Source of the DNA: a virus
DNA: 64,000 nucleotides
Direction: 5' to 3' (one strand)
Virus record (IMG/VR): IMGVR_UViG_3300044731_001604
Coordinates: 93,573-157,572 of that record
Part shown: positions 1-32,265 of the stretch, one piece after another
Layout of the letters: every line of letters starts with the position of its first letter
Numbering within the stretch: position 1 is the stretch's first letter
Position numbers and translations under genes: made by a program
The notes under the pieces: generated by a model
The model's input: only the letters and a program-made list of their open reading frames with translations
Told to the model about the DNA's origin: nothing
Databases searched by the model: none

Positions 1-368
1 TCTTCAGGATCAAACAGCTCAATTTGATTTGTTAAAACAGATTTTTTTGCTGCCATTACTGCTTCATTTGGCGTTAATCCCATGCCAACTGACATTTTAG
101 TAGTGAACACATCTTTGTATCCAGCTAGTATTAATGGTAATTCTTCTGCCACGGTTACTGGCATTTCTAAAACTTGTCTAGAATACGTTGTAAGACGTAC
201 TGTTCCGCCACGCTCAGATATAAGAGAGTTAATTTTGTCTGATATTGCAAATAACTGATCATTTAAGCTTGTTGCTTCAAAAAACATTCCAGCGTCAATC
301 ATTTCATTGATTTTATCTTGAACACCATCAGAATTTACTACACACCATACAGAACTTTGAGTACTCAC
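1..368 (-). CDS. Partial CDS (runs off the window edge); N-terminal degenerate mCpol/GGDEF-like domain
   Basis: Not in the ORF track. GTG at 368 follows SD GAGGTG and the frame is open to position 1: MSTQSSVWCVVNSDGVQDKINEMIDAG...ERGGTVRLTTYSRQVLEMP...KMSVGMGLTPNEAVMAAKKS. The domain call is by pattern only. Confidence 0.6.
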   Translation of the reverse strand, partial: MSTQSSVWCVVNSDGVQDKINEMIDAGMFFEATSLNDQLFAISDKINSLISERGGTVRLTTYSRQVLEMPVTVAEELPLILAGYKDVFTTKMSVGMGLTPNEAVMAAKKSVLTNQIELFDPE

Positions 369-382
369 TTTACACCTCGATA

Positions 383-1963
383 TTAAATACCACGTTTTTT
401 GAGTAACAATTTAGTTTTTAGTGTTAGAAGAAATAACTTAACTGTTTCTGGATCTGCGTCTGGAGCAAATTGCAAAGAAAAGGTTCCATCGTTTTTTTGA
501 ATTGCTTCTACGAATTTATACGGTTGACCTTTTTCGTTTTTGTTTAAAACTTTAAAGCAAGCACATGGTGTAAATTTTGGTTTGCCTGACTCGTCTTTAG
601 AGAATTCAGGTCTTCCACAATCAAAGCAAGTTGATTTAAATAATTCTTGACTTGTTGCAACTGCTTTTATTGATTTAGAAATCGAAGATTTATTTAATTT
701 TTTTCTAAAGTATCCTTCAGATTTCATTGCTGGCATTTTAGGGCCTTGTGGTTTAGGAATACTAGGCACAGCAACTTTTCCTTGTCCAGATGCTTGAGCT
801 TGTTTTGCTGCGGCAGCTTGAGGATTTTTGCTTTGTGGAACTGGTGGTAGTGGTTTTCCAGGTTGAACCGGTTGACCTGCGCCTCTTGGCATTTCACCCT
901 TACCGATCTCTTCTTTTGAAACTTTTTCAGGAAGATCCTTCCCTTTTGATTCTTTATCCCAATGCTTTACTTTTTCCTTGCCACCTAAAGCTTTTGTTCC
1001 AGCTTCAGTATGAGCCCAACGTCTTTGAGCATCAGAAGCGTAAGGCTTCATTAGTGGCTCTACTTTTTTAGCGGTTGGTTTAGGGAAAGGTAGGACTTTT
1101 TTAGATTCTTTTAAAGACTCTTTGCTCAATCCTTGGTTTTCTTTTTCCATTTTATTATCATTTGGAGATGGATATTTTTTAATCTCTGGGATTTCTTGAT
1201 CTACAGAATCTGTTGTTTTAATTTTATCCATTTCTTTTTGAGACGCACCTTCTGAAATTATCGCAGGATTATTCTCTTTGTCTTTGATATCTTCTTTTTG
1301 TTTTTCTTCTGGGGTTGTAGCTTTTTCAGGAAAAGACTTGTCCCCATCGACTTCTTTTATAGCCATTTTGTCCAACTCTTCTTCTAATTTGTCGGTTTTA
1401 AGTTTTTTACCGATTAAAGCATCAACTAATTTACCAATAACGCTTGTTAATTCTTTTGTTGTTTCATGAGCAATTTGCATCTTAGAGGTATCTACATCTT
1501 GTTTTTCTGGTATAACCATAGATAGCATATGCTTAATTGCTGAAAAATCTTGTTTTGGCTCTTCTTTTTGCTCAATAGCATTGGTTTTTAAATCGCCTTC
1601 ATACATCTCGCCAATTGACATGAGATGTCCAACAATTGCAGGAATTCCTTGCTTATCAAAAGTATGTATTATTTTTCCACCTTGAACAAATTCAGCTCTG
1701 AAAACATCCATATCCTGTCTTTCAAAGTGGATAGTGATTCCTTCGTCGCCTGGGAATTTTACATCTTTATATTCACCAATTTTCATTGGCTTTACAGTTT
1801 GAACTACCCAACTTACTAAAGCACGTGGTGCTACCATTAAAGGTAAGTACATTTCAAGTGGGTCAGAAACAGATCTAGATCTTTGGTGAAAAATAGCCTT
1901 TTCGAGAGTTTCAAACCCTCGCTCACCGACTAAATCTGTCAAAAACGGCTTGATAGTTTTCAT
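383..1963 (-). CDS. Putative internal head protein, multi-segment and low-complexity, with a C-terminal Cys-rich domain
   Basis: 526 aa. Contains the PYASDAQRRWAH...WDKESKGKDLPEKV minimotif, a P/Q/K-rich linker, CFDC...PCACF, and several hydrophobic-x-K|S motifs. Confidence 0.55.
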   Translation of the reverse strand: MKTIKPFLTDLVGERGFETLEKAIFHQRSRSVSDPLEMYLPLMVAPRALVSWVVQTVKPMKIGEYKDVKFPGDEGITIHFERQDMDVFRAEFVQGGKIIHTFDKQGIPAIVGHLMSIGEMYEGDLKTNAIEQKEEPKQDFSAIKHMLSMVIPEKQDVDTSKMQIAHETTKELTSVIGKLVDALIGKKLKTDKLEEELDKMAIKEVDGDKSFPEKATTPEEKQKEDIKDKENNPAIISEGASQKEMDKIKTTDSVDQEIPEIKKYPSPNDNKMEKENQGLSKESLKESKKVLPFPKPTAKKVEPLMKPYASDAQRRWAHTEAGTKALGGKEKVKHWDKESKGKDLPEKVSKEEIGKGEMPRGAGQPVQPGKPLPPVPQSKNPQAAAAKQAQASGQGKVAVPSIPKPQGPKMPAMKSEGYFRKKLNKSSISKSIKAVATSQELFKSTCFDCGRPEFSKDESGKPKFTPCACFKVLNKNEKGQPYKFVEAIQKNDGTFSLQFAPDADPETVKLFLLTLKTKLLLKKRGI

Positions 1964-1966
1964 GTA

Positions 1967-2365
1967 TTAGTTATTGATTCCAGAATTTGGATTGTAATTT
2001 AAGTCGCCTTTAATTTCGTATCCAAAACAAGTTGCTGTAGAAGAAATAATATGAGTATCGGTACCCATAGCAATAACTGTATAGCTATTTGGTGGCAAGC
2101 AGATACCATCTGCACCGCCAGTTGGAGCTGTAACGCCAGAAGTTCCAGTTTTAACAAATGCAGTTAACGTACTGTTGTTATAAATAGCAACATTGGCACC
2201 TGCCACTGAGATGCTTTTGGCAGTATTTAAAGCGCCCATAATGGTCACTTTGCCTAAAGTTGGGCCAACAGTTACTAGTCCACCTGCGTATTGGTTAAAT
2301 GAATAGTCTGTTGAGTCTGCACCAGAGTATCTGTTTTCGCTAGCTTTTGATCTTAAATTTCCCAT
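1967..2365 (-). CDS. Small beta-rich virion structural protein (putative)
   Basis: 132 aa, G/T/S/A-rich, SD GAGG, upstream CTAATCT motif. Confidence 0.5.
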   Translation of the reverse strand: MGNLRSKASENRYSGADSTDYSFNQYAGGLVTVGPTLGKVTIMGALNTAKSISVAGANVAIYNNSTLTAFVKTGTSGVTAPTGGADGICLPPNSYTVIAMGTDTHIISSTATCFGYEIKGDLNYNPNSGINN

Positions 2366-2399
2366 TATTAACCTCTTTTACTATTTAAAGATTAGGGTG

Positions 2400-3308
2400 T
2401 TACAGCATTCCTGCCGGTCCGGATTTATTTCCTGGAGTGTCGTCATCTGAAACTGGCCAAGCTGATTGATATCTATTGTCCATTATATTGCTATTTGGAT
2501 CTCTATTAACGTCAAATAAAATATGTTCTCTGATTGCCATGGCTTGATAGGGCATTCTTTCCACTGATCGCTCAAACGTATTAGGGTCTGTTATTTGAGT
2601 TACTCGTATCTCGTGTAAAAGTCTTGCAATTATATAATATGGGGTATATCTGTATCTAACTGCATAAACTGTACCGCGACCTGTCTTAATGTTAAAACCA
2701 GGTCTTTCTTGAGTTAACCACTTAAGCCAGCCTTCATTTGTAATTTCAAAATGAACTCCACACTTATAGTCTTTTCCATCTGCATCCATAATGCTTTCTA
2801 CATGAGTTGCTGGATATTGCAATCTATCAATTCCTGTAGTTGATGCTTCCACATACTGATTTGTTATTGTATGTAATTCAATATTTTTTAAATAAATTCT
2901 GTCATATGGAGCAAGGACTACTTCTTTATCTGGGCAATCTTCATATGATCTACTGAATGTCATTTGTACAGTATCATGTTTTAATAAACCTTGAGTTTCA
3001 ATTTCCCAGTTGCTTGAATTAGATGAAAATGAAGCCCAGAATGTTCCAGCAGATTTATAGATGTATCCATCCGAACTTGCTCTTCTGGCTTGAACTGCAT
3101 GGTTGTCACCTCTTGATGCCATTCCACTTGGGTCTAGGCAAGCTCTCATGTGTTCACACAACACGCCTTGGCTTTTAATTAAAGCGTCAAAAGCGTTCTT
3201 ATCAAATGATTGTTGAAACTGGCTTAATGTAAAATATTGCTGCGTACCTTCGGCATGCTGGCTTTCTCTTTCTCTAGGTCCACCTTTTCTGTTTTGATTT
3301 TCTGACAT
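2400..3308 (-). CDS. Putative neck/head-closure protein (SPO1/Twort-like)
   Basis: Likely start is MSENQ at 3308 (TAATG overlap with the upstream gene). Motifs FDALIKSQG..CEHMRACLDP, LAPYDRI and YAVRYRYTPYY resemble myovirus neck proteins. Lies in the structural region. Confidence 0.5.
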   Translation of the reverse strand: MSENQNRKGGPRERESQHAEGTQQYFTLSQFQQSFDKNAFDALIKSQGVLCEHMRACLDPSGMASRGDNHAVQARRASSDGYIYKSAGTFWASFSSNSSNWEIETQGLLKHDTVQMTFSRSYEDCPDKEVVLAPYDRIYLKNIELHTITNQYVEASTTGIDRLQYPATHVESIMDADGKDYKCGVHFEITNEGWLKWLTQERPGFNIKTGRGTVYAVRYRYTPYYIIARLLHEIRVTQITDPNTFERSVERMPYQAMAIREHILFDVNRDPNSNIMDNRYQSAWPVSDDDTPGNKSGPAGML

Positions 3309-3760
3309 TACGACCGCCTTGAGAAATATTTTAATGGTACAGCTGGTTCTGTTAAGGCTAGCGACCTTACTAGGGCCCACTCGCTGATGTTTTTTGAAAG
3401 AAGCTCTTCAGAATACATTATTTCTATTTCAGATTTACTAATATCATATACCGCAAAAAGATTTTCATCTCCAACTGGCTCAGGTAAGCTAGGCATAAAT
3501 ATGGCATCTCTTAGTCTATCAAATAATGAAATTTCTTCAGATTTTTTAATTTCATTCCACTCTATGTCTTCTTTTTTTTCTGCCAAGAACTTTGCTATTG
3601 CTGCATGTGGAGCTGCACCTAATGCAGATATTTTACCATCTTCATCTTTGCAAAAGAAGGCATGCAATCCGCCTACAGTTTCTATATAAACCACAGGTCT
3701 ACCATCTTTGGTCTCCCCAGCTATTTCTTTTGTTTTTATTTCTTCTGCTGGAATTTTCAT
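3308..3760 (-). CDS. Hypothetical head-associated protein
   Basis: 150 aa, coupled to both neighbours, internal EIKK|SE motif. Confidence 0.5.
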   Translation of the reverse strand: MKIPAEEIKTKEIAGETKDGRPVVYIETVGGLHAFFCKDEDGKISALGAAPHAAIAKFLAEKKEDIEWNEIKKSEEISLFDRLRDAIFMPSLPEPVGDENLFAVYDISKSEIEIMYSEELLSKNISEWALVRSLALTEPAVPLKYFSRRS

Positions 3761-4806
3761 TTATTGTTCGCCTGTTTAATTTTTGATTTTAATTTTTCTT
3801 CACTAGTTAGCATAGAATCTGGCTTAACTTCATCTAGTTTATCATCTCTTAGTCTACCTGGATCTAATCCAAAATTTGTAGATCTAGTTGGATTTGCGGT
3901 TATTTGATCTTCTCTTAATTTGTACCACTTTTTAACTTTTTCAGCAAAGTCTGCGTCGTGGAACACAACATCTGATTTGAACATAAATTTAAAATTAAGC
4001 TCATTTGGTTTTTGTGCTTTAAATGGATTGTGTTTATCAATTTTTTTATATTTATCTACATAAGTTGAATGTAATAGCTTGTCTTTGGTAATACTTTCTG
4101 GATATAAATTGTGGCCATTTAGCCATGCAAATGCTGCCTTATGCTCATTCCCGTTGTTTCTTGTTAAAACGTGATCTGCTAATTTTCTAGCTAATTCTAA
4201 TTCTAATTTTGGATTCTTATTAATGTGTGCTTCTAAGGTGCTATTTGACATCGTTGCAAGCTTGTCTATTTCTGGTCTAGACTTTCCAGATATCTTATAT
4301 CTGTTAACTATTTCTTTAATAGTTTTTGGAAGCAATCCCCATTGGCCCATTGCTTTTTCTCCAACAGACAATCCAGTTTTAACTGTTTTATGATTTATAT
4401 TTTTACCGTTGTTAGACTCTAATACTTTTAAATTCCACAAAAAAGCATCTCTTGGATGAGATCCAAAGCCAGATAAGTCTATTGGAGAATTTTGTACTTG
4501 TGGGACATTGTTTTGTACACCAATATGGCTAGTCGCTACTGGCGTAATTGCAGCAGCTAATCCTAGACCTAAAGACAAAGCCTTCTCTCTTAGAGATTTA
4601 GATAGGTCTGAGCCTTCTACCCAGGCATTCATGTTATGCGAAGATAAGTATTCTGCAATGTTGTTTAAAGCATCTTGTAAAGAGTCAGATTCAGTCGCAA
4701 TATCGTATGTTCTAGGATATAAATCGAACAGAGGTTGGAGGTCATCGAATTCATTAATTCTAAAATGTTTTCTTTCTTTATTTATAGATTCAACAAACAG
4801 CACCAT
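3757..4806 (-). CDS. Virion-associated lytic transglycosylase (lysozyme/SLT-like fold)
   Basis: Catalytic-type LES motif, AMGQWGLLPKT (cf. AxGLMQxxPxT) and KAAFAWLNG (cf. ALAAYNAG), preceded by DLSK|S and a hydrophobic segment. Confidence 0.65.
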   Translation of the reverse strand: MVLFVESINKERKHFRINEFDDLQPLFDLYPRTYDIATESDSLQDALNNIAEYLSSHNMNAWVEGSDLSKSLREKALSLGLGLAAAITPVATSHIGVQNNVPQVQNSPIDLSGFGSHPRDAFLWNLKVLESNNGKNINHKTVKTGLSVGEKAMGQWGLLPKTIKEIVNRYKISGKSRPEIDKLATMSNSTLEAHINKNPKLELELARKLADHVLTRNNGNEHKAAFAWLNGHNLYPESITKDKLLHSTYVDKYKKIDKHNPFKAQKPNELNFKFMFKSDVVFHDADFAEKVKKWYKLREDQITANPTRSTNFGLDPGRLRDDKLDEVKPDSMLTSEEKLKSKIKQANNK

Positions 4807-4807: not shown

Positions 4808-6571
4808 TTAACCTGCCTTTTGAGCCAAATTGCGTCTAAATAAATTAGACCAATGGCCCAGAATTTCTCGCTTCTCTTTTGGCAGACTGTCTATTACGTC
4901 TGCTATTTTAGATTGGTGTTCCAACTTTTTAGATGGAGTGTCTCCAACCCAATGAGTGTCTGCGAAATGGTTTAACATCATGTTCCTTACATTTAGCTCA
5001 TTTTGCTTCATAGTTTCACTATTAAAGTGAGGGTTATGAATAATGCTATTAAAAGTTTGAGCCGCCTGATCAGGATTCATCTTCTCTATTATACCATTTA
5101 CGGTGCCTGTAATCAAGTCTTTCTGTTTTGGCGTTAGTTTTTTCTTATTATGCACTATGTCAGAAACAGCGTTTAAGGCCATAGTAGGGTCTTCTGGCAA
5201 TGACTTCAATTGTGCCGAACTTATTGATTGCACTGGTTTTCTAATAACTCTAGTATGTGGAAAACCTTGTCCAAGCTCATCTAAAGAGTACATCTTACTG
5301 TCATCTATATCGTTTAGACCTTTGACCCAGTTATTCATATTGTGCCAACGGTGATTGAAGTTGTCTCTGATATGTTCTCTAGTTGGCTGATCTTTAATTG
5401 CGCCTAATTGCTCTTCTAGTTTGTCTTTAATTTTGTGACCATTATTATGCCACCAGTCAGCCAGATTTTCGTGAGAATGCCACCCTCTTGCTGAATCTTT
5501 ATACAAGTTTCTGGTTCCATACGAATGTTTTAAATACGCTTCTGGGGAATCTGGAGTTGCAAAATCTAAATTTGTTGCCCCCACAGTTTTAATATATTGA
5601 AAATTTCTTTCATGATCAATACCAAGTAATTTATTAAAACCCTCTTCTTTGTTTTTAGATACTAATAAATTACCAGCGTGTCTATCTAAGTTATTCATTA
5701 GATAGTCCATTACGCCTATTTTGTGTAATTCTTCTGGATTAACATGGGTCTTATTGTTTTTTAAATCTATTGATGTTACTTCATGGTGATTTGGTGCAAA
5801 TTTGTGTATGGTAAATGGATGTCCATCTTTTTCATGCATTGACACGTCTTCTGCTAAATGTCCAATTCCGCCGGCGTTATACAATGCTTTTGTGGCCATA
5901 GTTGACCATCCAGAAATTGGAGCTTTCATAAAAGATCTTGTGGCAGTCTCTAGTTTTTTATGATACGGCTTAGACATAAACGTTGATTCAGATTGTGGCG
6001 TTGAAACAAAGCTACCGCCTTCATCTGTATAGCCTCTATATAAATGAACGTTTTTAGCAGCTATACCTTGTTGACTCAATGTCTGTTCATTTTTATGTTC
6101 AGCTGGATCTAAGTGAATTGATTTATATTCCTGTGGGGCTGGAAATTGTTGTAGATGCATAGAATGGTCTACCGTATCTGGCGCCTTGGTATCAATCTTA
6201 GATGTCATTTTTTTCCAAGCTTTTGGCTCAACTGATTTATTCAAATCTGAAGGGATTAAATTTTGTAATTTGAATGCTAGTTCGCCGGCTACTTTCTTAA
6301 CAGCCTCTTCAATCATTATTTTGTGTAAATTTTCTTTTTGTGCATTTAAAATATTTTTCTTAAATTCTGGATTATTAACATAATTAAATACAAAAGATAA
6401 TGGATCGTTCGTTTGTTTTTGTAATATTTTAGGGATACTAGTTTCTGAGACAAATTCTTTTAATGAATTTTCCCCAAACTCAGATTTAATCAATGAAAAG
6501 ACGTCTTCCAATGATGCACTGGAGACTTGTTTACGGTCATTAATATACTGTTTAAGATTAAGTCTTTTCAT
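4808..6571 (-). CDS. PI3/PI4-kinase-like (HipA-like superfamily) kinase-domain protein
   Basis: FMSKP (candidate ATP-binding Lys), MDYLMNNLDRHAGNLLV catalytic loop, LLGIDHERNF metal-binding motif. Confidence 0.75.
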   Translation of the reverse strand: MKRLNLKQYINDRKQVSSASLEDVFSLIKSEFGENSLKEFVSETSIPKILQKQTNDPLSFVFNYVNNPEFKKNILNAQKENLHKIMIEEAVKKVAGELAFKLQNLIPSDLNKSVEPKAWKKMTSKIDTKAPDTVDHSMHLQQFPAPQEYKSIHLDPAEHKNEQTLSQQGIAAKNVHLYRGYTDEGGSFVSTPQSESTFMSKPYHKKLETATRSFMKAPISGWSTMATKALYNAGGIGHLAEDVSMHEKDGHPFTIHKFAPNHHEVTSIDLKNNKTHVNPEELHKIGVMDYLMNNLDRHAGNLLVSKNKEEGFNKLLGIDHERNFQYIKTVGATNLDFATPDSPEAYLKHSYGTRNLYKDSARGWHSHENLADWWHNNGHKIKDKLEEQLGAIKDQPTREHIRDNFNHRWHNMNNWVKGLNDIDDSKMYSLDELGQGFPHTRVIRKPVQSISSAQLKSLPEDPTMALNAVSDIVHNKKKLTPKQKDLITGTVNGIIEKMNPDQAAQTFNSIIHNPHFNSETMKQNELNVRNMMLNHFADTHWVGDTPSKKLEHQSKIADVIDSLPKEKREILGHWSNLFRRNLAQKAG

Positions 6572-7845: not shown

Positions 7846-7854
7846 TTTAAATTC

Positions 7855-9630: not shown

Positions 9631-9657
9631 TTTACCTCTTACAATATCTATACCACA

Positions 9658-10844: not shown

Positions 10845-10845
10845 T

Positions 10846-19020: not shown

Positions 19021-19428
19021 TCAATTTTTCAATTTGAGGGAGCCAACACACAAACCTTCTGGTTGTGACCCAAAGATCACATAGGATGGCGCATTGCTTG
19101 ATTTATTTAACGAAGCTTCAACAGGTAATAGGCCCCTTCTTTTTGCCCATTCCATCGCTTTTTGTTTTACTTTTTCGTCTGTGTTTTTTCCGAAATCTAA
19201 TCTTACTGATTTGTTTTCGTAAACACTTGCAAGTATTTCATTTTTCTTAAGAGAATTACGCTCTTCCAAGCTTTTTGCGACATTTGATACGGCAACTTTG
19301 GTTCTTTTAACACCAAATTTTTTATACCAAGACTGTAAGCGATACGCCAACTTAGGTGGAAGTTTTTTCTCTAAACTTTCCTCTGTTAGCATTTCAGTTA
19401 ATTCTACCGATAACTCATCAATTGTCAT
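19021..19428 (-). CDS. Hypothetical head-associated protein
   Basis: 135 aa; NVAK|S, SLKK|N and SLNK|S motifs. Confidence 0.5.
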   Translation of the reverse strand: MTIDELSVELTEMLTEESLEKKLPPKLAYRLQSWYKKFGVKRTKVAVSNVAKSLEERNSLKKNEILASVYENKSVRLDFGKNTDEKVKQKAMEWAKRRGLLPVEASLNKSSNAPSYVIFGSQPEGLCVGSLKLKN

Positions 19429-25400: not shown

Positions 25401-25790
25401 TTTAACAGGTGGTCTTGATCCGTATGTTTCATTAATATATTTATTGGCTCTATCTTCAAGAACTTTTGTGTCAACATTTGGGTGTACGCTTGCCCCTTTT
25501 GACCTGTAAGCTGTATCGTTCATAGCAATATGGTTAACTACATCTGACGGTGTATTTGGATTATTAAGCATGCCATCAACAATTGAGTTGATCTCATGTT
25601 CTCCTACTTTTGGAGCAATATGGTTATATAATTTAGAGATAGACTCTTTTGGCGCATTCGCATGTTCTGCAATATCAGACATAAAAGCATGATCGTATAT
25701 GGTTTTATCCTCATGCGGAGTATTAATATAATTTTCAACATGAGAATTTAGAACATCTGATGGCGTATCTGTAGTTAATTCTTTGCTCAT
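19440..25790 (-). CDS. Giant (2116 aa) putative internal virion protein: N-terminal LRV-like helical repeats and a C-terminal EExQSD domain
   Basis: Repeated NPNTP/HPNVD/HKNAD/HSNLP/HKNTN/YKNLP/HKNVN units. C-terminus has HP...VAWSRVD...WIIEEFQSDF...AKAQGVKTLYM...IYD...KYGF. Confidence 0.65.
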   Translation of the reverse strand: MSKELTTDTPSDVLNSHVENYINTPHEDKTIYDHAFMSDIAEHANAPKESISKLYNHIAPKVGEHEINSIVDGMLNNPNTPSDVVNHIAMNDTAYRSKGASVHPNVDTKVLEDRANKYINETYGSRPPVKNLTPEFYENLLNNRKNHTEDEPNAKTDNEDEIVRLGYATTKHHTPDSIERGVKIFEKGPIYGFNAPTNPSSTIDSDDLVSDFIGNNDLSKDQLNRLHNVYESSSKDYPNTISSIVSHKNADPTLLGKIVKTYNSEESDHNKRSLLRHALGHSNLPNEVLSSVVEKPELDWHEKEALNLNENLSPDQIDKLVSNGHKEFLGHKNTNPDSIKKAWDLSSKDTDAARKMLGYKNLPPDVLKEIVNHKSKNIAIDALKHKNVNKDVVDTALKRKALDVYEAAKQHPLAGHDIYTNEFKQGKRNLHDMWKDSKAMEAWDKMSPEDKHLSLRTMHEKLKGTDLEEISKKSKQSLSDVVQNKLDLIKSPELSQDERDSNTDDLLQMFSESHPKNMSIYSGNDPRSGYYSSQEHKLDLKQSVKDLISNGNKKAEDFALQHPGLTKDLLDSKSRTSASFLDKLYDADKANKENNTQIYDQYGMPDKYSSDAWKLIHNDYSSMGTVKKIVKDYPGVLDTHDWGSKNNENQTWLSDKFEDMSDSEKEKNINDLLEISNGGAAPLIIATKNTPEKVKNELWDKLTPPEKHDLVTGGKYYFNPHDLNNHEENKKILSGHYNDLLPEDMKPRHILGNLEKSVISGMSPSNKSHVSILKDTIKNSEDSKSNSIISSLDRDFKKHKNILNIVPEDKVESIGTTAAIEHLLENEHSGADKLQGVVSNLKDFIKSHADKIENPQEKQDYITKTWKDILYSRASTRVANKAGKVFDDLVDSSGSEQGNELNRILLKDGLLSEEKKAELESKKSFTEKLDSIEHSKKMDYILNSVKGKSLSQPDFEAAVNQFQPDMYLYNHKFNNDHEEVSNDMLNFFDHVADDDKAFYITKLFDTDLDSNTKKILPNLINPLFEKINNLQNWSNEGLNALKDRFFKKVYESLGPVKQVKDLAKKMVDSTISNKNGDLLYDMIDKKILPSTYNKHLINMLQTSPESFGSGTLLSGATSIGHDDSNQKLAETFVNTLDKEAQKSIDQHKDYDKQKNLFTRLSQAHTEDQSKLQSITNFLKKHTLSEDPITSEYANKSLAKMLYSKIPKEEKTSIFKNLPNTPEIANNIEYGNLDTNNPDILENITGHKLRKFLSDSENFGKLTKQNIDVVTNRLFLDNEINESDRITAFGDLSTNPVVSPESLAKLGRSIPHNVYSAQIGVIFSLSKSGIKEKLNSLSTALHQLVESKIDELDKLMVPQDEGSPYFGSEYLSESHLSEIKKHLTPLAKFVGGTFFDESSTDVKSKLQTYSKVYESLDKHLGTILKNSKPEDVKKNAEIASEVLRDVTYSSLDISNEDLNHISNIISMSKQGGYDISLSYPVDIRDYKKLINRAKDAQLSDWQIHFEKHPEFNFCLDGVQELNSNVLGAYSFEKAYEADPQSAVHSAVKMIGRMDDNTLDKYGKGVLSKVVNVFTDPDVTPPDLSAPFKALGDKVSYSEFQDLVQDLDHAQKYNTQAIALQYGVGGQDLADSYVKERGVDEVYASSLFIDKKHSNEIVNNWEKDLKSTEIVDKLLRNYRTDVSSLDKISNILIENHKSGYNNLNKQESSSLAMVLLKHPNLSKESVERLYEETSNDKQVVFLPSRQYHPAFANPTWGGYLMRKFAPALPSEFKKTISEEKLVKSVSVHDKDVDVLQNTMNKVPADGIMWADFKKMNPELENNKVIKNIFMSKNNKPVVPEDFVNAMQSAEIQDKAKEYHMTYSIFDLKLQQHANKPSLVFQLNNSEKSEKEMSQDPKLWALYQMVLKETNGIRESSIGLHPTTPQMVAWSRVDTSSNKDGWIIEEFQSDFAQKFRKNIRTILANSPNGLEIDGHKLSPKEIKDYIKKIDAQLGEWSKAGMNTVIENAKAQGVKTLYMHGAGIRSHMSGGSMVNGQLREYNKDFINPRITDIYDGTAQKYGFTKVDYTDYPHKSVDTLNETRKKGLPTHCWALSLTDEPVQAKEKTAKVKKPRKPKLKE

Positions 25791-26452: not shown

Positions 26453-27066
26453 TGGTCCAACCTAGATGGACTGGACCCATACTTCATTTTATATAAAATT
26501 CGTTTTACGTAGTTAGGAGATTCAGCGCCGCGATAATCCCCTGACTCAATTTCATAGTCATATTCTGGTGTGCTTAATTTCCCAGCTTCAATCGCTTGTT
26601 TTTGTTCTTTTCTAATGTTATCTAAAGCAGCTTTGGATATAAAGTTTTTTTCTTGTTTTCTTTCTGTAGGTTTAATAGACGGCATAATTGGGTAAGGTTG
26701 CGTTCCATCAGTTTTTCTAGTTACAGATATTTCTCCACGCTTAATTGCTGCAAATAACGCATCTTTTTCTTCTGGATCTAACATTTTACCATTTAAGATA
26801 CAAGTGTGCCCGTCAGAAGATATCTCAGCTACGTCACCGTTGCTTAAAATATATCTAAACATTGTTATGGAAGATTTGGTAGGTTCTTCCAAAGAAAGGT
26901 GGGACGATGCAGATACTTTTCTAGAAAGCTCTTTAAAAGAATTATTAGCCATTTTTGGCACAAAGCCATTAGAATTATCAACTATAAATTCAATCTGGTC
27001 TCCCTCAACTCTAATTTCAGCTAATGGTACTTTAGATTGCGTGGATTTTACTACATAGATTTTCAT
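26449..27066 (-). CDS. Hypothetical head-module protein
   Basis: 205 aa, coupled to the protease gene. Confidence 0.55.
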   Translation of the reverse strand: MKIYVVKSTQSKVPLAEIRVEGDQIEFIVDNSNGFVPKMANNSFKELSRKVSASSHLSLEEPTKSSITMFRYILSNGDVAEISSDGHTCILNGKMLDPEEKDALFAAIKRGEISVTRKTDGTQPYPIMPSIKPTERKQEKNFISKAALDNIRKEQKQAIEAGKLSTPEYDYEIESGDYRGAESPNYVKRILYKMKYGSSPSRLDQ

Positions 27067-28733
27067 TTGTCATCTCCTGGCAATAAAAGACTTTTTTGAT
27101 TAATTGTGTCACTTACAGCTTGGGCTCTGTCCCATGCGTTTTGCATAGTGATCGGTCTTTTAGAGTCTGCCTGATATGATTTTAACACACCTAGAGACTT
27201 TTGTATAGTTTTTTTATCAAAACCATGATGTTTCATGCGTAAAGCCAATACTTTAGGGTCAACGCTTTGAATCCATTTAGATGCTTCTGGGTGTATTGCT
27301 GAACTATCATTTTCTAAATAATCTGGCTTCATATACACATGGCTAAAAGCATAATCATTATCAATATTTAAAAGATGCCCGTCTGGATGAATTAAAACAT
27401 TACCAAGGTGTCTGTCGCTATTTTGAAGAACGTGGTCTAATATCGCTAATTTATGCAGACTTCCATCTTCCGTAGCTTTTTTATGCGCATTGTCCCAAGC
27501 TTCTTGGGACTCTAGTGGAGTTTTAGACCCCTTGATATACTCCACTGCTTGAGTTGAAAGCCCACCATGTACTTCTGGGTGCTTAATGGCTGCAGTTGTA
27601 GGAACATGTTTTTCCATGCCAAATACATTTCTTGCAATATCAGAATAGTGTGAGGCATTGTGATTTTGAGATTCCTGATTTTCGCCCATTGATAAACTGC
27701 TTGGGCCTTTTAAAAATACATCTTGCCCATTGTCGTTTCTTAAAATATGTAATTGTTTATCTGGACGGTATGAATCATGTCCAGGTGAGAATTTTTGCTT
27801 ATTATCAAAATACAAACCTTCAACCAAGTTTTTTTGATCATGATTTGCATTAATATGAGAATGAGTTTGATTAATTCTAGTTAACTTAGGCTCGCCTTTT
27901 TTTAGAGCAAGGTCTTCAGCAACATCAGCAAAGTGTTCTATATAAGTATCAGATATTTCAGGAAGAGCCGCCTTAAGAACTTCTTTAAGTGGTCTTTTTC
28001 TGTCCCAATCTCTAATTGCCGCTTTGATTTTATTCTTATTGGTTTTATTAACTATTTGTTCTCTAACTAAAGCTGCGCCGCCTGTAAGTTGTCCTGGTGC
28101 GACATTACCCATTCCGGCTTCTAGAGTTTTATTAAGCTCGTCAATAGCCTTTTTCATATCAGTAAAGTCTATTGCATCATCAGATAGAACGATTGAGTCG
28201 ATTGTTACTGTTGAAATTGATGAGCTTTCAAATTTTTTAACGATCTCTTCTGATTCTTTGTCAGTCATAACATCAATCCAGCATTGCTTATTACATGGAG
28301 TTAATGTGATCGCTACCTTTTTCATCATAGCTCTTTTAAGGATATTGCCATCTCGCTCAAGAGTCACGCCTTCGATTGAGGCTCCAACTTGGATTGGTTC
28401 TTTTTTATTATGAAAGTAACGAATCATTGCTGCAATTGCCAAAGCTCCATGGTGTTCTTCTTCATCAAAAAGCTCAAGTGCCCCATAGATAAACGGAACT
28501 TTTACTTGATCCCAGAATTTACGTTGACGATCAGTTTCACAATCGCCCTTTTTTAAAATTTTTTTTGCATATTTAAATACGCCAATTGCTGCAACTTCAG
28601 GAGAGTCGTTTTTGTGTTCAAAATTGGCAAACACTTGCCCTTTTTCAACAAGAGATATGTCTACGTTTTCAATTAATAGCGATTCGCCACTAGAATCAAT
28701 AGCTTGTGTCGCAATAGGCATGTCTATTATCAT
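27063..28733 (-). CDS. Prohead maturation protease fused to a C-terminal PI3/4-kinase-like domain
   Basis: N-terminal DSSGE, NFEH and GASIEG...KVAITLTPCN (HK97/Twort-type protease). C-terminal VFLKG...LDHVLQNSDRHLGNVLI...LNIDNDYAF. Confidence 0.8.
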   Translation of the reverse strand: MIIDMPIATQAIDSSGESLLIENVDISLVEKGQVFANFEHKNDSPEVAAIGVFKYAKKILKKGDCETDRQRKFWDQVKVPFIYGALELFDEEEHHGALAIAAMIRYFHNKKEPIQVGASIEGVTLERDGNILKRAMMKKVAITLTPCNKQCWIDVMTDKESEEIVKKFESSSISTVTIDSIVLSDDAIDFTDMKKAIDELNKTLEAGMGNVAPGQLTGGAALVREQIVNKTNKNKIKAAIRDWDRKRPLKEVLKAALPEISDTYIEHFADVAEDLALKKGEPKLTRINQTHSHINANHDQKNLVEGLYFDNKQKFSPGHDSYRPDKQLHILRNDNGQDVFLKGPSSLSMGENQESQNHNASHYSDIARNVFGMEKHVPTTAAIKHPEVHGGLSTQAVEYIKGSKTPLESQEAWDNAHKKATEDGSLHKLAILDHVLQNSDRHLGNVLIHPDGHLLNIDNDYAFSHVYMKPDYLENDSSAIHPEASKWIQSVDPKVLALRMKHHGFDKKTIQKSLGVLKSYQADSKRPITMQNAWDRAQAVSDTINQKSLLLPGDDK

Positions 28734-28811
28734 CTCAATCTCCTAGATACATATACCATAAAAAGGTTTTTTTATAAGTATTTGTATTACCTATAGATTA
28801 AGATTTTTATA

Positions 28812-28964: not shown

Positions 28965-29014
28965 ACTAGCCTCCGATATAATAATATTACCTCAACTGGA
29001 GGCAAAAATCAATA

Positions 29015-29266: not shown

Positions 29267-29284
29267 TTTTCCTCCGTTTTAATG

Positions 29285-29313
29285 ATAATACCAGAGGTTT
29301 GTTTTAAAGTCAA
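29285..29313 (-). promoter_or_regulatory. Sigma70-type promoter
   Basis: TTGACT-17 nt-TATTAT with TGn extension. Confidence 0.65.
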
Positions 29314-30192
29314 CTAGTGATTGCATCCTTCGTGACATTGATGCGGATTTTCTAAATTTTGTGACCATTCTAAGTATTCGTCATAATCCATAAATTGCTC
29401 TGCTTTGATTAATCGTTCACCTGTAGGCTCTTCAGATTTATGTACGCTATAGTATTCAGAGTAATAATCATGCGTAAATGATTTAAAGTCAGAAATACCT
29501 TGTTCATTAAAAGTAAAACCTGGGGCAACCATGGTCATAGTGTGTCTGCAGTTGGGGTGAGCGCCGTCAAATGGAGTTTTACCATCCCATAACTTTGGCT
29601 TAAAATATCCATGTGCTAATTGTGATAATTTATATGGTCTTGGTTTTCTAATATTGTTAGGATCATGGTACATCTGTTTGCAATATTTGCAAATTTTATC
29701 ATCCACCACTCCACGAAAAACTATGGTTGGATCAGATACGCCAATATCACTTGCGACTCTGGCGATACCTTCTCGGTTTGCATAGGCAATGACACTTCTA
29801 GTTTCGTTTCCTGTCAACATTTCGACATATTTACTAGCTTTATCAAAATGATCTTTAACTGATGCCATTGCTTCTTTGTGATCTTTGGCTGCTAAAATAG
29901 CGTTTAATATATGATTTTTAACTTTAAGCTTTTGAGAATCAAAATAATTGCCCGTTATTTCCGCTAAATTTTCTATAGTTTTTTGATCTGGTCTAATACC
30001 GGCACCATACATCATAGCTAATGCCCAAGTATACAAACCTTCAATGCTATCTAATGGATCTGATTGCCCTAATACTTCAAAAATAATATGAGGTCCCTTG
30101 AAATATCTTCCAAGAAGTCTAGCTTTTGTTGTTTCAAAAAGCTTTTCAATTCTTTGTAGAATAGTTTTTCTTTGAGAATCACTTAATTTCAT
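29314..30192 (-). CDS. MuF/SPP1 gp7-like minor head protein
   Basis: DDKICKYC and HPNCRH motifs; directly downstream of the portal gene. Confidence 0.75.
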   Translation of the reverse strand: MKLSDSQRKTILQRIEKLFETTKARLLGRYFKGPHIIFEVLGQSDPLDSIEGLYTWALAMMYGAGIRPDQKTIENLAEITGNYFDSQKLKVKNHILNAILAAKDHKEAMASVKDHFDKASKYVEMLTGNETRSVIAYANREGIARVASDIGVSDPTIVFRGVVDDKICKYCKQMYHDPNNIRKPRPYKLSQLAHGYFKPKLWDGKTPFDGAHPNCRHTMTMVAPGFTFNEQGISDFKSFTHDYYSEYYSVHKSEEPTGERLIKAEQFMDYDEYLEWSQNLENPHQCHEGCNH

Positions 30193-30222
30193 TGGCCCTC
30201 TTATGCTATTATACTACAAATA

Positions 30223-32265
30223 TTAATCTTTTTTATCTTTTAAGATTTTAGACATTTCTTCTAAAGCCTTTTTAGACTCTTCTTTCCACTTATCCATATG
30301 ATTATTAACTAATTCTTTGTGTCTTCTTAGTAATTGTCTAGTAAGAGAATTGTGATTATTTTTTAAAGATTTATCTAGTGCCGCATAGTTAACTAATTGA
30401 AACTCTGTTTTTTGCATTTGATCTTGTTCGCCATCCTGTTGTTCTTCTTGTTGTCCATCTTGCTGCTCTTCTGGTTGTCCTTGCGCCATCATTGCTTGTT
30501 GCTGCATTTGTTGTTGCATCATCATCTGTTGTTGCATTGCAGCCTGTGCTTTTTGTAAATCCATTTGTGCTTTTTGGAAATAAAACGGATCTCTTACGTA
30601 ATTCCATCTAGGGTCTTGAGCCGCACCTTTGATTTTAAAGAAATTCTCTAGTATAACACCAACCGGAACATATTTATCTAAAATTTGTTGATATTGAGGA
30701 TTCATTGGCAAATCTGCACCAAGTTCAGTTGGTACTAAGTTCTTTTCTACTGCCTTCATAATATCATTATATGACATATGAACGGCCATATCTTGTTGCA
30801 ATCTAGTGTTTTCTTTTTCCGGAGAATCTTTTTCTAATCCAGTCAAAACTATTTGATGTGTTTTTGCTAATTCTGGGTCAATTTTAGGAAGAATGTGAGT
30901 ATTAAGGAAATCTTGAAAATCATACAAAAGAGGTCTGATACCGATATCTCTTGCAGCATTTAATTTCCACTCATTATCACTTTCGCCCAAAGCTTGTGTG
31001 TTTGTTCCTCTAGCTAAATATCCCATTGAAGGAACTTCTTCTGGGGACATTTGGAATGCTGATAATATAACCCTGGCATTATTATCCATTAGATACTGGA
31101 ATTCAGCATCTCTTCCGCCTTGATCCATTTGCTGCCAAGATATTTCATCTTCTTGGCCAACAGCAAATACTGGAGTTCTCCAACTATTGCTTACAGAATT
31201 GATTGATTGCTGAAATTGTAGTCTTGTTCTTTGTAACATTGCTTCATCGGCAGAATCTGATTTAAAAATTAACATACCCTTAGCAGCACGTCCATTTTGG
31301 AAGTAAAGCTTATTATGCATAGTTATGTTAATATGCGTAGTAATGGCATTTAATGCTTGATCAATTGGAGTAAGTGGGTAGCCATTGTGTTCAATATTTG
31401 TTGTTGGGTATAAATTGTATACAACTAATTCTTCTTCAGTAAAAGCTTGCACTGGCTTAAGATCGACAACTTGAACATATCTATATTCATCTTTTGTGTA
31501 TTTTTCTACATCAATTTTTTTGTTTTTTAATTGCTGTAATTGTCTTAAAGCTTCTCTTCTTAAAGATTGGTCTTGTTCTTTTTGTGGCAACATTTTATAA
31601 ATTGTGCCAGCATCAGCAGCTCTCCATGCATACAATTCTTTTTGAGCAGTCTTTGGGTTTATATGCCAGATAAACTCTGTAGCAAATCTTCCATAAGCAA
31701 CGCCATCTCTAGTAGATAGTTTTAAGAACTGAGACAAATTCATTCTATCAGTCTCTTCGTCTAGAGTTCCTTTGCCACAATTCCAGAGCATTTTTTTAAC
31801 TTTTTCTATTTTTTCTTGAAGTATCTTTTGTTCTTCTGGACTTCTGACGGCATTTTTGTCCATGTCTTGAACGTCAAAACCATTTGAAAATCTATCAATT
31901 CTAGGTCTACCAAAAGAAGATACATGATTTGATCTGATTTGCAAAATTTGATTAACTAATTCGTCTCCACCTGGGCCTGTAATCTTTTTAATGATTGAAT
32001 CTGGAGTTAAATTTTGCTTAAGCTTATAGAAACCCATCGCACCTTGATAATTTGCGTGAGGATCTACTTCAAAAGCCATTCTTTCAACTTGATTAATACT
32101 TTGCTGATTAATTGATTTAACTATTTGACCTAAAATGCCATATGGTTCATTTTTAGAACCTAAAGCTTCTGCTTCTTCAGCCTTTTTCAATTCAGAAATA
32201 GCAACTGGATCAATTGCTATAACTGGCTGGGCTTTCTTTTTTTCGGTTTTCTTTAAATCAGACAC
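30223..32265 (-). CDS. Portal protein (SPO1/Twort-like)
   Basis: GYPLTPIDQAL, YFQNGRAAKGML, NSWRTPV, DAEFQ, AFQMSPEE, GIRPLL; Q/M-rich C-terminal extension. Confidence 0.88.
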   Translation of the reverse strand: MSDLKKTEKKKAQPVIAIDPVAISELKKAEEAEALGSKNEPYGILGQIVKSINQQSINQVERMAFEVDPHANYQGAMGFYKLKQNLTPDSIIKKITGPGGDELVNQILQIRSNHVSSFGRPRIDRFSNGFDVQDMDKNAVRSPEEQKILQEKIEKVKKMLWNCGKGTLDEETDRMNLSQFLKLSTRDGVAYGRFATEFIWHINPKTAQKELYAWRAADAGTIYKMLPQKEQDQSLRREALRQLQQLKNKKIDVEKYTKDEYRYVQVVDLKPVQAFTEEELVVYNLYPTTNIEHNGYPLTPIDQALNAITTHINITMHNKLYFQNGRAAKGMLIFKSDSADEAMLQRTRLQFQQSINSVSNSWRTPVFAVGQEDEISWQQMDQGGRDAEFQYLMDNNARVILSAFQMSPEEVPSMGYLARGTNTQALGESDNEWKLNAARDIGIRPLLYDFQDFLNTHILPKIDPELAKTHQIVLTGLEKDSPEKENTRLQQDMAVHMSYNDIMKAVEKNLVPTELGADLPMNPQYQQILDKYVPVGVILENFFKIKGAAQDPRWNYVRDPFYFQKAQMDLQKAQAAMQQQMMMQQQMQQQAMMAQGQPEEQQDGQQEEQQDGEQDQMQKTEFQLVNYAALDKSLKNNHNSLTRQLLRRHKELVNNHMDKWKEESKKALEEMSKILKDKKD

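Follow-up and report, generated by a model that had tools for sequence, protein, structure and literature searches.

We consider SPO1-type, lysine-specific head maturation, extended to some enzyme cargo, to be the best explanation of what is seen in the head module of an uncultured myophage, a 158-kb relative of Myxococcus phage Mx1, and we hold this reading with slightly better than even confidence. The probable head cargo includes a lipid-kinase-like enzyme as well as a few small proteins, since they carry the lysine motif at which the capsid protein, scaffold, portal and protease appear to be processed. The window, that is, the whole 64,000-nucleotide stretch analyzed, contains this module, and all coordinates refer to it. 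The evidence begins with a site common to the major capsid protein (MCP) and the candidate prohead protease (↓ marks a predicted cut).

16204..17595, minus strand: MCP, 463 aa (phrog_752 major head protein, E 6e-34); motif lysines K6 and K13
17557-17595, minus strand: predicted MCP propeptide of 13 residues, cut after K13 in LVK↓TLEAG
17482-17556, minus strand: predicted mature MCP N-arm, following the K13 site
27063-28733, minus strand: 556-aa protein (protease and kinase); motif lysines K202 and K279
28128..28733, minus strand: prohead protease domain, residues 1-202, with its C-terminal limit at the conserved ELNK202↓TLEAG
28053..28127, minus strand: copy of the MCP N-arm in the 556-aa protein, residues 203-227, directly after K202
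27066..27896, minus strand: kinase domain with type II PI4-kinase fold, residues 280-556, behind the invariant K279 (27897-27899)

The MCP is 55% identical to that of Mx1, and all 25 of its homologues retain the K13 site. The protease domain aligns with the SPO1 procapsid maturation protease gp3.2 (hhalign with a 13-sequence profile, probability 98.5%, E 2e-15) over a region that takes in the K↓(S/T)LEAG segment; there is also a weak phrog_1028 match. H40 and S119 do not vary among 13 homologues, and K202 is kept in 16 of 16. MCP residues 9-42 match the 556-aa protein at 17 of 34 positions without a gap, compared with 10 of 34 for the next best match in the proteome, and this N-arm copy, which has pLDDT below 50 in the AlphaFold model, is found in all protease homologues of the clade, as well as between SPO1 gp3.2 and gp6.1. 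The site co-varies between the two proteins: LVK↓TLEAG in the MCP and LNK↓TLEAG in the protease here, LRK↓AMEAG and FAK↓AMEAG in Mx1, and K↓ALEAG in both proteins of other relatives. In SPO1 the corresponding sites are LNK23↓ALEAG in gp6.1 and LDK169↓SLEAG in gp3.2, with 15 of 25 residues identical. According to the earlier note, Twort/A511-like capsid proteins are matured by cleavage at K↓S near the N-terminus.

That note had proposed that a hydrophobic-x-K↓S/T/A motif marks proteins packaged into the capsid and released there by the protease, to be injected with the DNA as a putative host-takeover or anti-defence payload, and we located every motif that it quoted in the protein stated. The remaining proteins concerned, with their motif lysines, are as follows.

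17592..18419, minus strand: acidic scaffold, 275 aa (24% D+E), directly upstream of the MCP gene, homologue of an Mx1 290-aa protein; conserved sites K28 (18336-18338), K172 (17904-17906) and K216 (17772-17774)
30223..32265, minus strand: portal, 680 aa (Pfam Phage_portal and several portal PHROGs); K6, K28, K50, K619 and the conserved C-terminal K632 (30370-30372)
29314..30192, minus strand: MuF-like minor head protein, 292 aa (phrog_4728 head morphogenesis, E 1e-4, weak); K252 and K263
4808..6571, minus strand: PI4K-like kinase, 587 aa (Pfam PI3_PI4_kinase, 38.1 bits, cut-off 27.1); K29 and K112
6236-6571, minus strand: helical leader of this kinase, residues 1-112, ending at the invariant DLxK112↓(S/A)
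383..1963, minus strand: 526-aa protein; K411 and the conserved K425↓S (689-691) and K443↓S (635-637)
3308..3760, minus strand: 150-aa protein, a candidate small processed head protein; central K73↓SE (3542-3544)
19021..19428, minus strand: 135-aa basic protein, between the 2116-aa gene and a 142-aa gene preceding the scaffold gene; K109↓S (19102-19104)
3..368, minus strand: last 122 residues of a 389-aa protein whose start lies upstream of the window; ELNK325↓AL
3757..4806, minus strand: 349-aa protein, called a transglycosylase in the earlier note; K70 and K277
19440..25790, minus strand: 2116-aa protein, in the head module; K1781

We counted the loose pattern [LIMVF]xK[STA] against composition-matched, within-protein shuffles. 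Across the whole genome it occurs 277 times vs. 211 expected, a background excess of about 1.3 times, and a clear excess is confined to the head block at 16204-32265 (47 vs. 24, z 4.9), where it comes from the scaffold (5 vs. 0.6), portal (10 vs. 2.5), 556-aa protein (6 vs. 2.7) and MCP (4 vs. 1.6). In the window genome alone, the candidate cargo is at expectation (526-aa protein, 4 vs. 3.4; 587-aa kinase, 3 vs. 2.7; 2116-aa protein, 10 vs. 11.3; 349-aa protein, 3 vs. 1.9). Therefore, the enrichment over a composition-matched background that the earlier note had asked for is present in the scaffold, portal, protease and MCP, but within this one genome fails for the listed cargo. In a position-weight scan, the scores of single cargo sites were also reached in shuffled sequence; K112 of the 587-aa kinase, for example, scored 10.1, and about five equally good sites are expected by chance.

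Counts over families are more discriminating, although they were taken over mutually related homologues and therefore are not independent events. Observed/expected ratios were 5.2 for the scaffold (z 16), 3.7 for the 150-aa protein (z 9.2), 2.8 for the 135-aa protein (z 5.7), 2.3 for the portal (z 11.8), 2.1 for the protease-kinase, 2.0 for the 526-aa protein (z 5.0) and 1.43 for the MuF-like protein. The terminase family was flat (1.08), the 389-aa family was not significantly enriched (1.4), and the neck proteins were depleted. The earlier note's choice of the 150-, 135- and 526-aa proteins as motif carriers is thus borne out by these family ratios. An HNH endonuclease family, an improbable cargo, also stands at 2.1 times, with few sequences.

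A narrower motif, Φ-x-K-S-E ([LIMVFP]xKSE), was compared inside and outside the gene block that runs from portal to sheath. In four genomes, including the GC-rich Mx1, it is enriched 4-15 times inside the block and not outside: 16 vs. 2.5 expected inside and 2 vs. 3.6 outside in the window genome, 19 vs. 3.0 and 5 vs. 3.7 in G001, 7 vs. 1.6 and 0 vs. 2.3 in G005, and 12 vs. 0.8 and 0 vs. 1.0 in Mx1. The decoys ESK, KSD, KTE and RSE gave flat or weak, inconsistent enrichment in the same block test (single-genome z ≤ 2.5). In the earlier note's cargo without the 2116-aa protein, 6/14 true-motif sites were conserved vs. 14/101 decoy sites (Fisher p 0.016); the rest of the proteins gave 7/60 and 51/438.

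For the structural proteins, comparison supports a lysine-specific maturation code that would be common to the MCP, protease, scaffold and portal and derived from the SPO1-type head module. All five scaffold sites are conserved among five close relatives, vs. 2/12 decoy sites, and the 244-aa scaffold of SPO1 has 11 such sites. Portal sites cluster at both ends of the protein (68 in the first decile and 41 in the last, in 39 sequences). One conserved portal motif site, K335, lies within the folded core, where cutting is unlikely. In the MuF-like protein, K252 is conserved in close relatives only, with the motif at alignment column 253 in 5/6 close genomes.

The most direct sign that an enzyme may ride into the prohead is that the protease is joined, past two conserved sites, to a kinase. 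The kinase domain scores 43.4 bits against Pfam PI3_PI4_kinase (cut-off 27.1), and its best Foldseek match is PI4KII-alpha (4hne, E 3e-6). K202 lies in an AlphaFold segment with pLDDT below 50, as do residues 273-280 around the invariant K279. The DRHxxN motif is intact in the window, but about half of the 550-aa relatives have lost it, and so the conserved role of the fused domain may be structural rather than enzymatic.

For the stand-alone 587-aa kinase, whose best Foldseek match is also PI4KII-alpha, comparison supports a removable N-terminal leader. Among 35 homologues (26-44% identity), K112 is invariant together with D296, R297, H298, N301 and D319, conservation is at least 90% at D109 and L110, and positions +1 to +10 after K112 are conserved as well. 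The leaders of these homologues contain 84 sites vs. 26.8 expected (3.1 times, z 11), and the bodies 26 vs. 62.5 (0.42 times, z −5). The AlphaFold model (mean pLDDT 84.6) dips at residues 101-120, placing K112 between the helical leader and the kinase; the Mx1 kinase has an LQK35↓AVK site. Thus, the idea that this kinase is cargo with a removable leader gains from leader enrichment, body depletion and the invariance of K112, but not from the window genome, where its count is at expectation. The claim that motifs often lie at domain boundaries held at the sites where the models allow a test, namely K202, K279 and K112.

Of 10 homologues of the 150-aa protein, 8-9 retain K73↓SE, among them an Mx1 103-aa protein; the gene directly follows the kinase gene in Mx1, and here the 349-aa gene lies between them. 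In the 135-aa protein, K109 is kept with its motif in 5/8 sequences. The linker that holds K425 and K443 of the 526-aa protein is variable and precedes a Cys-rich C-terminal domain of about 80 residues; the alignment has insertions and deletions around the motif sites, and 3/4 sites are conserved, vs. 7/36 decoy sites. In the 389-aa protein, K325 is kept in 5/5 relatives, with a second K↓(S/T)E just upstream in 4/5. Enzyme-bearing proteins encoded just upstream of the window (NUDIX, GNAT and a repeat protein) have the same sites. One relative has a GNAT module flanked by FGK↓SE both in a 990-aa late protein and in its kinase protein, and another has it in the protease polyprotein, an instance of module shuffling.

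Two of the proteins listed as cargo dropped out, with no sign of processing in either. Pfam, PHROG and PDB gave no match for the 2116-aa protein, nor is it homologous to the long protease fusions; its family ratio is 1.02, none of its 10 window sites is conserved, and K1781 is kept in only 1-3 of 9 homologues. The 349-aa family is likewise at expectation (1.01); the lysines K70 and K277 are conserved in five relatives, with the whole motif kept in only 3-4. This protein has no Pfam match up to E 1 and no PHROG match at E ≤ 0.001, and therefore the name transglycosylase is unsupported.

Several of these results bear on other explanations. We think it unlikely that only the MCP, scaffold, portal and protease are processed, and that elsewhere the motif reflects a lysine-rich, helix-rich background and ordinary linker conservation, with the kinases and small proteins being late cytoplasmic products that never enter the head. 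The genome-wide excess, the cargo counts in the window genome, the position-weight scan, the flat 2116- and 349-aa families and the enriched HNH family all speak for this reading. Against it stand an enriched leader together with a depleted body in 35 kinases, and a K112 as invariant as the catalytic residues in an otherwise poorly conserved leader. The confinement of Φ-x-K-S-E to one block in four genomes that differ widely in base composition, the lack of like conservation in decoys and the physical fusion of one kinase to the protease also argue against it. More improbable still is that the motif serves docking or assembly, as a short signal for binding scaffold, portal or a chaperone, or that DLxKAVxxKDW is a structural part of the kinase fold. 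In the capsid protein the homologous site lies at the N-terminus, where, according to the earlier note, Twort/A511-like capsids are matured, scaffolds are packed with motifs, as expected where destruction is needed, and the depletion in the mature kinase body and neck proteins fits avoidance of cutting better than docking. What speaks for a docking signal is conservation well past the scissile bond, over about 25 residues common to MCP and protease and over +1 to +10 after K112, and the conserved portal site in a folded core.

Possible, though doubtful, is a variant in which the proteins are loaded and cut but work inside the prohead, where they might form core or scaffold material, serve in size control or assembly, or act as enzymes on the head contents, and are then degraded, expelled at DNA packaging or bound to the shell, rather than injected as effectors. 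NUDIX and GNAT enzymes of the same block have no obvious task in the head, the 587-aa kinase keeps all its catalytic residues in 35 homologues, and T4, phiKZ-like phages and P1 eject enzymes of a comparable kind from their heads (PMC5512222, PMC10052503, PMC9024508). On the other hand, a role in the prohead would suit the loss of DRHxxN from about half the short relatives, and the kinase domain is kept C-terminally in both short and long (1137-1573 aa) forms, which points to a structural role; the N-arm copy could tether the protein to the shell, and the 150- and 135-aa proteins are more like small core proteins than enzymes.

In the explanation that we prefer, SPO1-type maturation extended to enzyme cargo, the serine protease (residues 1-202, probable catalytic His40 and Ser119) would cut after the lysine of hydrophobic-x-Lys↓Ser/Thr/Ala, where Glu or Leu often comes next. 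It would take 13 residues off the MCP, cut the acidic scaffold at several sites, trim the portal at both ends and cleave itself at K202 and K279. After K202 come the MCP N-arm copy, a small helical region and the kinase, in that order; the N-arm copy may anchor the protein to the shell or make both sites look alike to the protease. Fusion would place the kinase inside the prohead, and self-cleavage would then free it. The 587-aa kinase, with its catalytic residues intact, would probably lose its leader of about 110 residues in the head, and the 150-, 135- and 526-aa proteins and the upstream NUDIX, GNAT and repeat proteins are probably processed head-internal proteins too. What the comparison shows directly is homology, conserved sites, their enrichment and depletion, and predicted folds; from these we infer that the sites are cut and that the head contains these proteins, and, with the least weight, that they would accompany the DNA into the host. 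The theme of head-loaded enzymes would be shared with T4, phiKZ and P1 Dar. If true, the coupling of enzyme cargo to SPO1-type, lysine-specific maturation would be new to that theme.

The source record is a single contig of 157,572 bases (35% G+C), of which the window takes bases 93573-157572. Its nearest named relative is Myxococcus phage Mx1, whose capsid protein is 55% identical and with which it has a common gene order from helicase to tail sheath. The genes considered here are as follows.

Genes of the window
33327-35192 (-), terminase
32269-33243 (-), 324-aa protein
30223-32265 (-), portal
29314-30192 (-), MuF-like protein of 292 aa (phrog_4728, E 1e-4)
27063-28733 (-), 556-aa protein (protease domain, capsid-arm copy, kinase domain)
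26449-27066 (-), 205-aa protein
25787-26452 (-), inserted HNH/endonuclease VII gene (phrog_1035)
19440-25790 (-), 2116-aa protein
19021-19428 (-), 135-aa protein
18449-18877 (-), 142-aa protein
17592-18419 (-), acidic scaffold
16204-17595 (-), capsid protein
about 8300-16000 (-), variable block of small genes, including a ClpP-like protease
6958-8262 (-), neck-like proteins
4808-6571 (-), 587-aa kinase
383-4806 (-), 349-, 150-, 326-, 132- and 526-aa proteins
3-368 (-), terminal part of a 389-aa protein that starts upstream of the window

The MuF-like protein is named from a single weak PHROG match, with no match in Pfam, and its place beside the portal gene is consistent with that name. Upstream of the window the late strand also encodes 298- and 319-aa proteins, an HNH protein, an 819-aa NUDIX protein, a 311-aa GNAT protein, and proteins of 1025, 576 and 911 aa, the last 36% identical to the Mx1 tail sheath. 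The HNH/endonuclease VII-like gene in the window interrupts the head module, with the 205-aa gene on one side and the 2116-aa gene on the other; another gene of this kind is found upstream, flanked by the 319-aa and NUDIX genes. Both look like homing-endonuclease insertions. The sole tRNA of the window, a tRNA-Ala (anticodon TGC; 16074-16149, -), is directly downstream of the capsid gene, where a spurious 49-aa frame in the ORF list overlaps it.

Residues 1-202 of the 556-aa protein form a domain homologous to SPO1 gp3.2, the procapsid protease (hhalign of the protease alignment: 98.5%, E 2e-15, 172 aligned columns), and there is an additional weak match to phrog_1028, a head maturation protease. 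The probable catalytic residues are H40 (in N-x-E-H) and S119 (in S-I-E-G), neither of which varies among 13 homologues; both have aligned counterparts in SPO1. The model of this domain reaches a pLDDT of only 56-88, and a fold search with the 556-aa protein is dominated by kinase matches. The gene sits between the portal and scaffold/capsid genes, and a capsid-like K↓x-L-E-A-G segment (the arrow marks the predicted cut) follows the protease domain in the window phage, Mx1, more than 30 metagenomic relatives and SPO1. In the window phage, the capsid sequence L-V-K13↓T-L-E-A-G and its N-arm are repeated behind the protease domain at E-L-N-K202↓T-L-E-A-G, with 17/34 residues identical in an ungapped alignment, against 10/34 for the next best match in the proteome. 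No protease homologue lacks this arm copy, which lies 200-490 residues into the protein, and the two sites co-vary, reading K↓A-M-E-A-G in both Mx1 proteins and K↓A-L-E-A-G in both proteins of other relatives. A search of the proteome for a shared leader or a further arm copy outside the capsid protein and the protease found none.

Bacillus phage SPO1 (Herelleviridae; gp3.1 portal, gp3.2 protease, gp3.3 scaffold, gp6.1 capsid) resembles the window phage in protease homology, in gene order, and in carrying L-x-K↓A/S-L-E-A-G at the capsid N-terminus (gp6.1, L-N-K23↓A-L-E-A-G); there too, the site and the arm after it recur past the protease domain (gp3.2, L-D-K169↓S-L-E-A-G; 15/25 residues identical). 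Its scaffold likewise is full of Φ-x-K↓S sites (11), and its portal has L-E-K↓S-E at the N-terminus. As SPO1 shares this layout, both the Lys code and the arm copy were inherited with this type of head module, not invented by this phage. The two differ in what lies beyond: SPO1 gp3.2 (256 aa) stops about 55 residues past the arm copy, whereas the window protein continues for 330 residues that include a PI4K-like kinase, and its relatives for 900-1300. SPO1 also lacks the block of enzyme-bearing proteins that the window phage has between its capsid and sheath genes.

In the scaffold, 5/5 sites are conserved in five close relatives, vs 2/12 decoy sites; the portal sites cluster at the two ends of the protein (its first and last tenths); and K202 and K279 of the 556-aa protein fall in segments with pLDDT below 50. 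Taken together, the sequences make Lys-specific maturation of the capsid protein, scaffold, portal and protease highly probable. A literature search returned no proteomic or biochemical data on cleavage in Mx1 and its relatives, and nothing usable on measured cleavage sites in the capsid proteins of A511, Twort or SPO1. The capsid propeptide (17557-17595, -) contains a 7-residue tandem duplication (L-V-K-T-L-E-G / L-V-K-T-L-E-A) in the window phage and its five closest relatives, so that K6 becomes a further K↓T site, one that more distant relatives do not have.

The earlier note had proposed that the loose motif [LIMVF]xK[STA] also marks a set of head-loaded cargo (the 587-aa kinase and the 349-, 526-, 150-, 135- and 2116-aa proteins). 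All motifs that it quoted exist in the sequence. Against shuffles keeping each protein's composition, the loose motif occurs 1.3 times more often than expected genome-wide, and there is therefore a general background excess. In this genome alone, the head block (16204-32265) clearly exceeded expectation (47 sites vs 24, z 4.9), an excess that stems from the scaffold, portal, 556-aa protein and capsid protein, whereas the proposed cargo stood at expectation, which, by the note's own standard for refutation, speaks against the cargo half of the proposal at this level. The narrow motif Φ-x-K-S-E, or [LIMVFP]xKSE, was counted inside and outside the portal-to-sheath block in four genomes.

Narrow-motif sites, observed vs expected, inside and outside the portal-to-sheath block
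Window genome: inside 16 vs 2.5; outside 2 vs 3.6
G001 (a relative): inside 19 vs 3.0; outside 5 vs 3.7
G005 (a relative): inside 7 vs 1.6; outside 0 vs 2.3
Mx1 (55% G+C): inside 12 vs 0.8; outside 0 vs 1.0

The decoy motifs ESK, KSD, KTE and RSE were flat or at most showed weak, inconsistent enrichment (z of up to 2.5 in a single genome); KAE was mildly raised. The Mx1 proteins that carry such sites are the portal and scaffold, the NUDIX protein and kinase, the counterpart of the 150-aa protein, and four further late proteins. Outside the late block of the window genome, K-S-E is scarce (2 vs 10.7 expected), which could be avoidance of the protease motif or chance; the depletion is less marked in Mx1 and G005 and not seen in G001, so we draw no claim from it.

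Loose-motif ratios (observed/expected) by protein family
Scaffold: 5.2
150-aa protein: 3.7
135-aa protein (19021-19428): 2.8
Portal: 2.3
Protease-kinase: 2.1
526-aa protein: 2.0
Terminase: 1.08
2116-aa protein: 1.02
349-aa protein: 1.01
Three structural/neck-like proteins of 295, 142 and 132 aa (6958-7845, 18449-18877 and 1967-2365, all -): about 0.3

The comparative tests thus appear to extend the code to some of the proposed cargo and argue against it for the rest: the 150-, 135- and 526-aa families and the leader of the 587-aa kinase are marked by the motif, and the 2116- and 349-aa families are not. For the 150-, 135- and 526-aa proteins, we consider the case for processing evenly balanced. 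The threefold depletion in the 295-, 142- and 132-aa families, the opposite of the scaffold, would fit proteins that survive contact with the protease. With a position-weight matrix built from six confident site classes, hits beyond the training sites exceeded the shuffled null by a factor of only 2-3, and none of the cargo sites stood out; single sites cannot be called from it, and it is not used as support.

K279, just ahead of the fused kinase domain, is invariant in 13 homologues, and K112, which ends the leader of the 587-aa kinase, in 35. No site of the 2116-aa protein is conserved. That protein, which the note had taken for processed cargo, may be a head protein by position, on which the motif is silent; neither Pfam and PHROGs nor a profile search of solved structures gave a match for it. 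Nor is it a piece split off from the protease polyprotein, as its family profile finds no homology to the long protease fusions. Its N-terminal half contains short repeats around H-P-N / N-P-x-L motifs and resembles a helical repeat; its C-terminal domain of about 370 residues is well conserved, with many invariant residues, and is without a match in Pfam, PHROGs or structures. The 349-aa protein had been called a transglycosylase, a name that cannot be kept because it has no family match (none in Pfam even at E up to 1, none in PHROGs at E ≤ 0.001), and a family ratio at expectation lends no support to its place as motif-marked cargo. For neither the 2116-aa nor the 349-aa protein is there evidence of processing.

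Two kinases are candidate cargo enzymes. Residues 280-556 of the 556-aa protein match Pfam PI3_PI4_kinase (PF00454) with 43.4 bits, and the 587-aa kinase matches it with 38.1 bits (cut-off 27.1 for both). The fused domain has a high-confidence fold whose best structural matches (Foldseek) are type II PI4-kinases, and for both window kinases these are human PI4KII-alpha and beta. By score, fold and catalytic motif, both are members of the PI3/PI4-kinase superfamily and predicted kinases, of lipid or protein. In longer protease-kinase relatives (1137-1573 aa) the kinase keeps the extreme C-terminus, with 700-1100 residues inserted ahead of it. The D-R-H-x-x-N loop is lost in about half of the short relatives, so the fused kinase domain is retained throughout, though not in every case as an enzyme. 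Two long polyproteins of relatives (loci L037:13140-17423 and L060:16191-20798) carry inteins (Pfam PF14890) between the arm copy and the kinase.

In the stand-alone 587-aa kinase, by comparison, D296, R297, H298, N301 and D319 (the catalytic loop and metal-binding Asp) are invariant in 35 homologues. These are metagenomic, 26-44% identical and on contigs of up to 170 kb. A locus search with the kinase itself gave no loci, and kinase relatives were gathered from the genome records behind the capsid loci and by protein search. D109 and L110, close to the invariant K112, are at least 90% conserved, and the rest of the leader is little conserved. Within the leader, motif sites fall repeatedly on four alignment columns; it holds 84 sites vs 26.8 expected, against 26 vs 62.5 in the kinase body. 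Leader enrichment together with depletion of the mature part is the pattern expected of a propeptide that the protease removes. In the AlphaFold model (mean pLDDT 84.6), a helical leader (1-103) leads through a dip in confidence at 101-120 into the kinase; the Mx1 kinase has a shorter leader that ends in L-Q-K35↓A-V-K. On this pattern, the leader of the 587-aa kinase is probably removed, and the protein hence loaded into the head, although we hold this less firmly than maturation of the head proteins themselves.

Late proteins also exchange parts. A GNAT-like module flanked by F-G-K↓S-E-D-L-x-K sites is found in three places: a 990-aa late protein of G001, the leader region of the G001 kinase protein (860 aa), and the protease polyprotein of another relative, between the protease domain and the arm copy. 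The 576-aa protein (genome positions 82004-83734, 11.6 kb upstream of the window start; L075:3605-5335, the upstream part of the same genome) is 17% Lys and has four repeats ending in M-P-K-P-N-L-P-K↓S-E, an element that also occurs once in the protease polyprotein of the relative just mentioned for its GNAT-like module (locus L009). These cases suggest that modules travel between late proteins with their junctions, which would tie the late proteins and the protease polyprotein into one pool of parts. Within the window, the protease-kinase fusion is the only protein that might qualify as a polyvalent-type multi-domain protein; clearer multi-domain or enzyme cases lie upstream (the 819-aa protein, NUDIX + DUF3293, and the 311-aa GNAT protein), and relatives add the 990-aa protein and the protease fusions of 1137-1573 aa.

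A second protease is encoded in the variable small-gene block between the capsid and neck genes, a ClpP-family protein (8296-9093, -; Pfam CLP_protease, E 1e-33). It is probably not the maturation enzyme, a role for which we rejected it: homologues turned up in four close relatives only, and the 91 kb of Mx1 examined contain none, yet Mx1 keeps the motif.

Several known head-loading systems offer parallels. T4 gp21 cuts after Glu (L/I-x-E), and T4 cargo has a common leader of about 10 residues. IPI-III and Alt of T4 reach the prohead by means of an N-terminal leader that is later removed; the maturation protease cleaves them, and they are delivered together with the DNA (PMC5512222, PMC9958956). 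Leader-loaded enzymes and small proteins would be common to both phages. Unlike T4, the window phage has a Lys-based motif, long leaders (about 110 residues in the kinase) and one candidate cargo enzyme fused to the protease. With its Lys motif, SPO1-type protease and lack of a common leader, the proposed system works like that of T4 but is not a T4-type member. In phiKZ-like giant phages the motif ends in Glu, according to the literature on T4-like proteases, and the protease is of the T4 gp21 type. Many of their head-internal proteins, some of them enzymes, mature at a short motif, and the prohead protease (SPN3US gp245) also removes its own C-terminal part (PMC10052503, PMC7411985, PMC5694885). 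That processing is proven by mass spectrometry, whereas that proposed for the window phage is predicted from sequence.

The anti-restriction Dar proteins of P1 (DarA, DarB, Hdf, Ulx, DdrA, DdrB) enter the head during morphogenesis through N-terminal signals; they include large enzyme-bearing proteins, some proteolytically processed, and act on entry (PMC9024508, PMC12810830). In P1, cleavage of the capsid protein takes place after Glu120 (PMC9024508). P1 cargo was defined by genetics and proteomics and has no sequence relation to the window proteins. Polyvalent proteins are late phage proteins in which kinase, GNAT, NUDIX-associated and other conflict-type domains are joined in series, and for which packaging and injection are predicted; their kinases are truncated Ser/Thr/Tyr-type, and processing by built-in zincin-like peptidases was proposed (Iyer, Burroughs, Anand, de Souza, Aravind 2017; PMC5512222). 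The window candidates differ in having junctions with the Lys motif of the head protease, a PI3/PI4-kinase fold and, mostly, single domains with leaders instead of long polyproteins. The proposed mechanism is thus the one known from T4, phiKZ-like phages and P1 Dar, and the domain repertoire recalls that of polyvalent proteins. It departs from them in the Lys motif of its SPO1-type protease, in having a PI4K-fold kinase joined to that protease downstream of the capsid-arm copy, and in a second kinase whose long leader is dense in motifs.

By analogy with these systems, delivery of the processed proteins into the host is conceivable, though we rather doubt it. A wider reading joins all of these elements, and we regard it as improbable as a whole. 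Mx1-like phages would use the Lys motif of the head protease as a general code for loading and releasing enzymes; enzyme modules would be exchanged through it between the protease polyprotein and separate late proteins; two kinases of type II PI4-kinase fold would enter the host with the DNA and might act on host inositol lipids; and the capsid-arm copy would be a pseudo-subunit tether, fixing the protease-kinase to the shell. Inositol lipids occur in Myxococcus and in Bacteroidota. If this reading were true, these would be the first virion-delivered lipid kinases from a bacterial virus.

Proteins that are loaded into the head and accompany the DNA into the cell are the earliest means a phage has of countering host defences. 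Thorough documentation of such proteins is known for only a handful of models: T4, phiKZ-like phages, P1 and N4. A Lys-coded variant on the widespread SPO1-type protease, with its protease-kinase fusion and a kinase whose leader would be cleavable, would bring a large clade, most of it uncultured, under the head-loading principle. Virion cargo could then also be predicted from genomes by a sequence rule, namely Φ-x-K↓S/T/A sites with leader enrichment and depletion of the mature body; the Φ-x-K-S-E form gives the sharpest genomic signal, and the rule is directly testable in Mx1, a cultured phage. Finally, the arm copy, common to SPO1, offers a simple idea for how this protease family may be targeted to the prohead.
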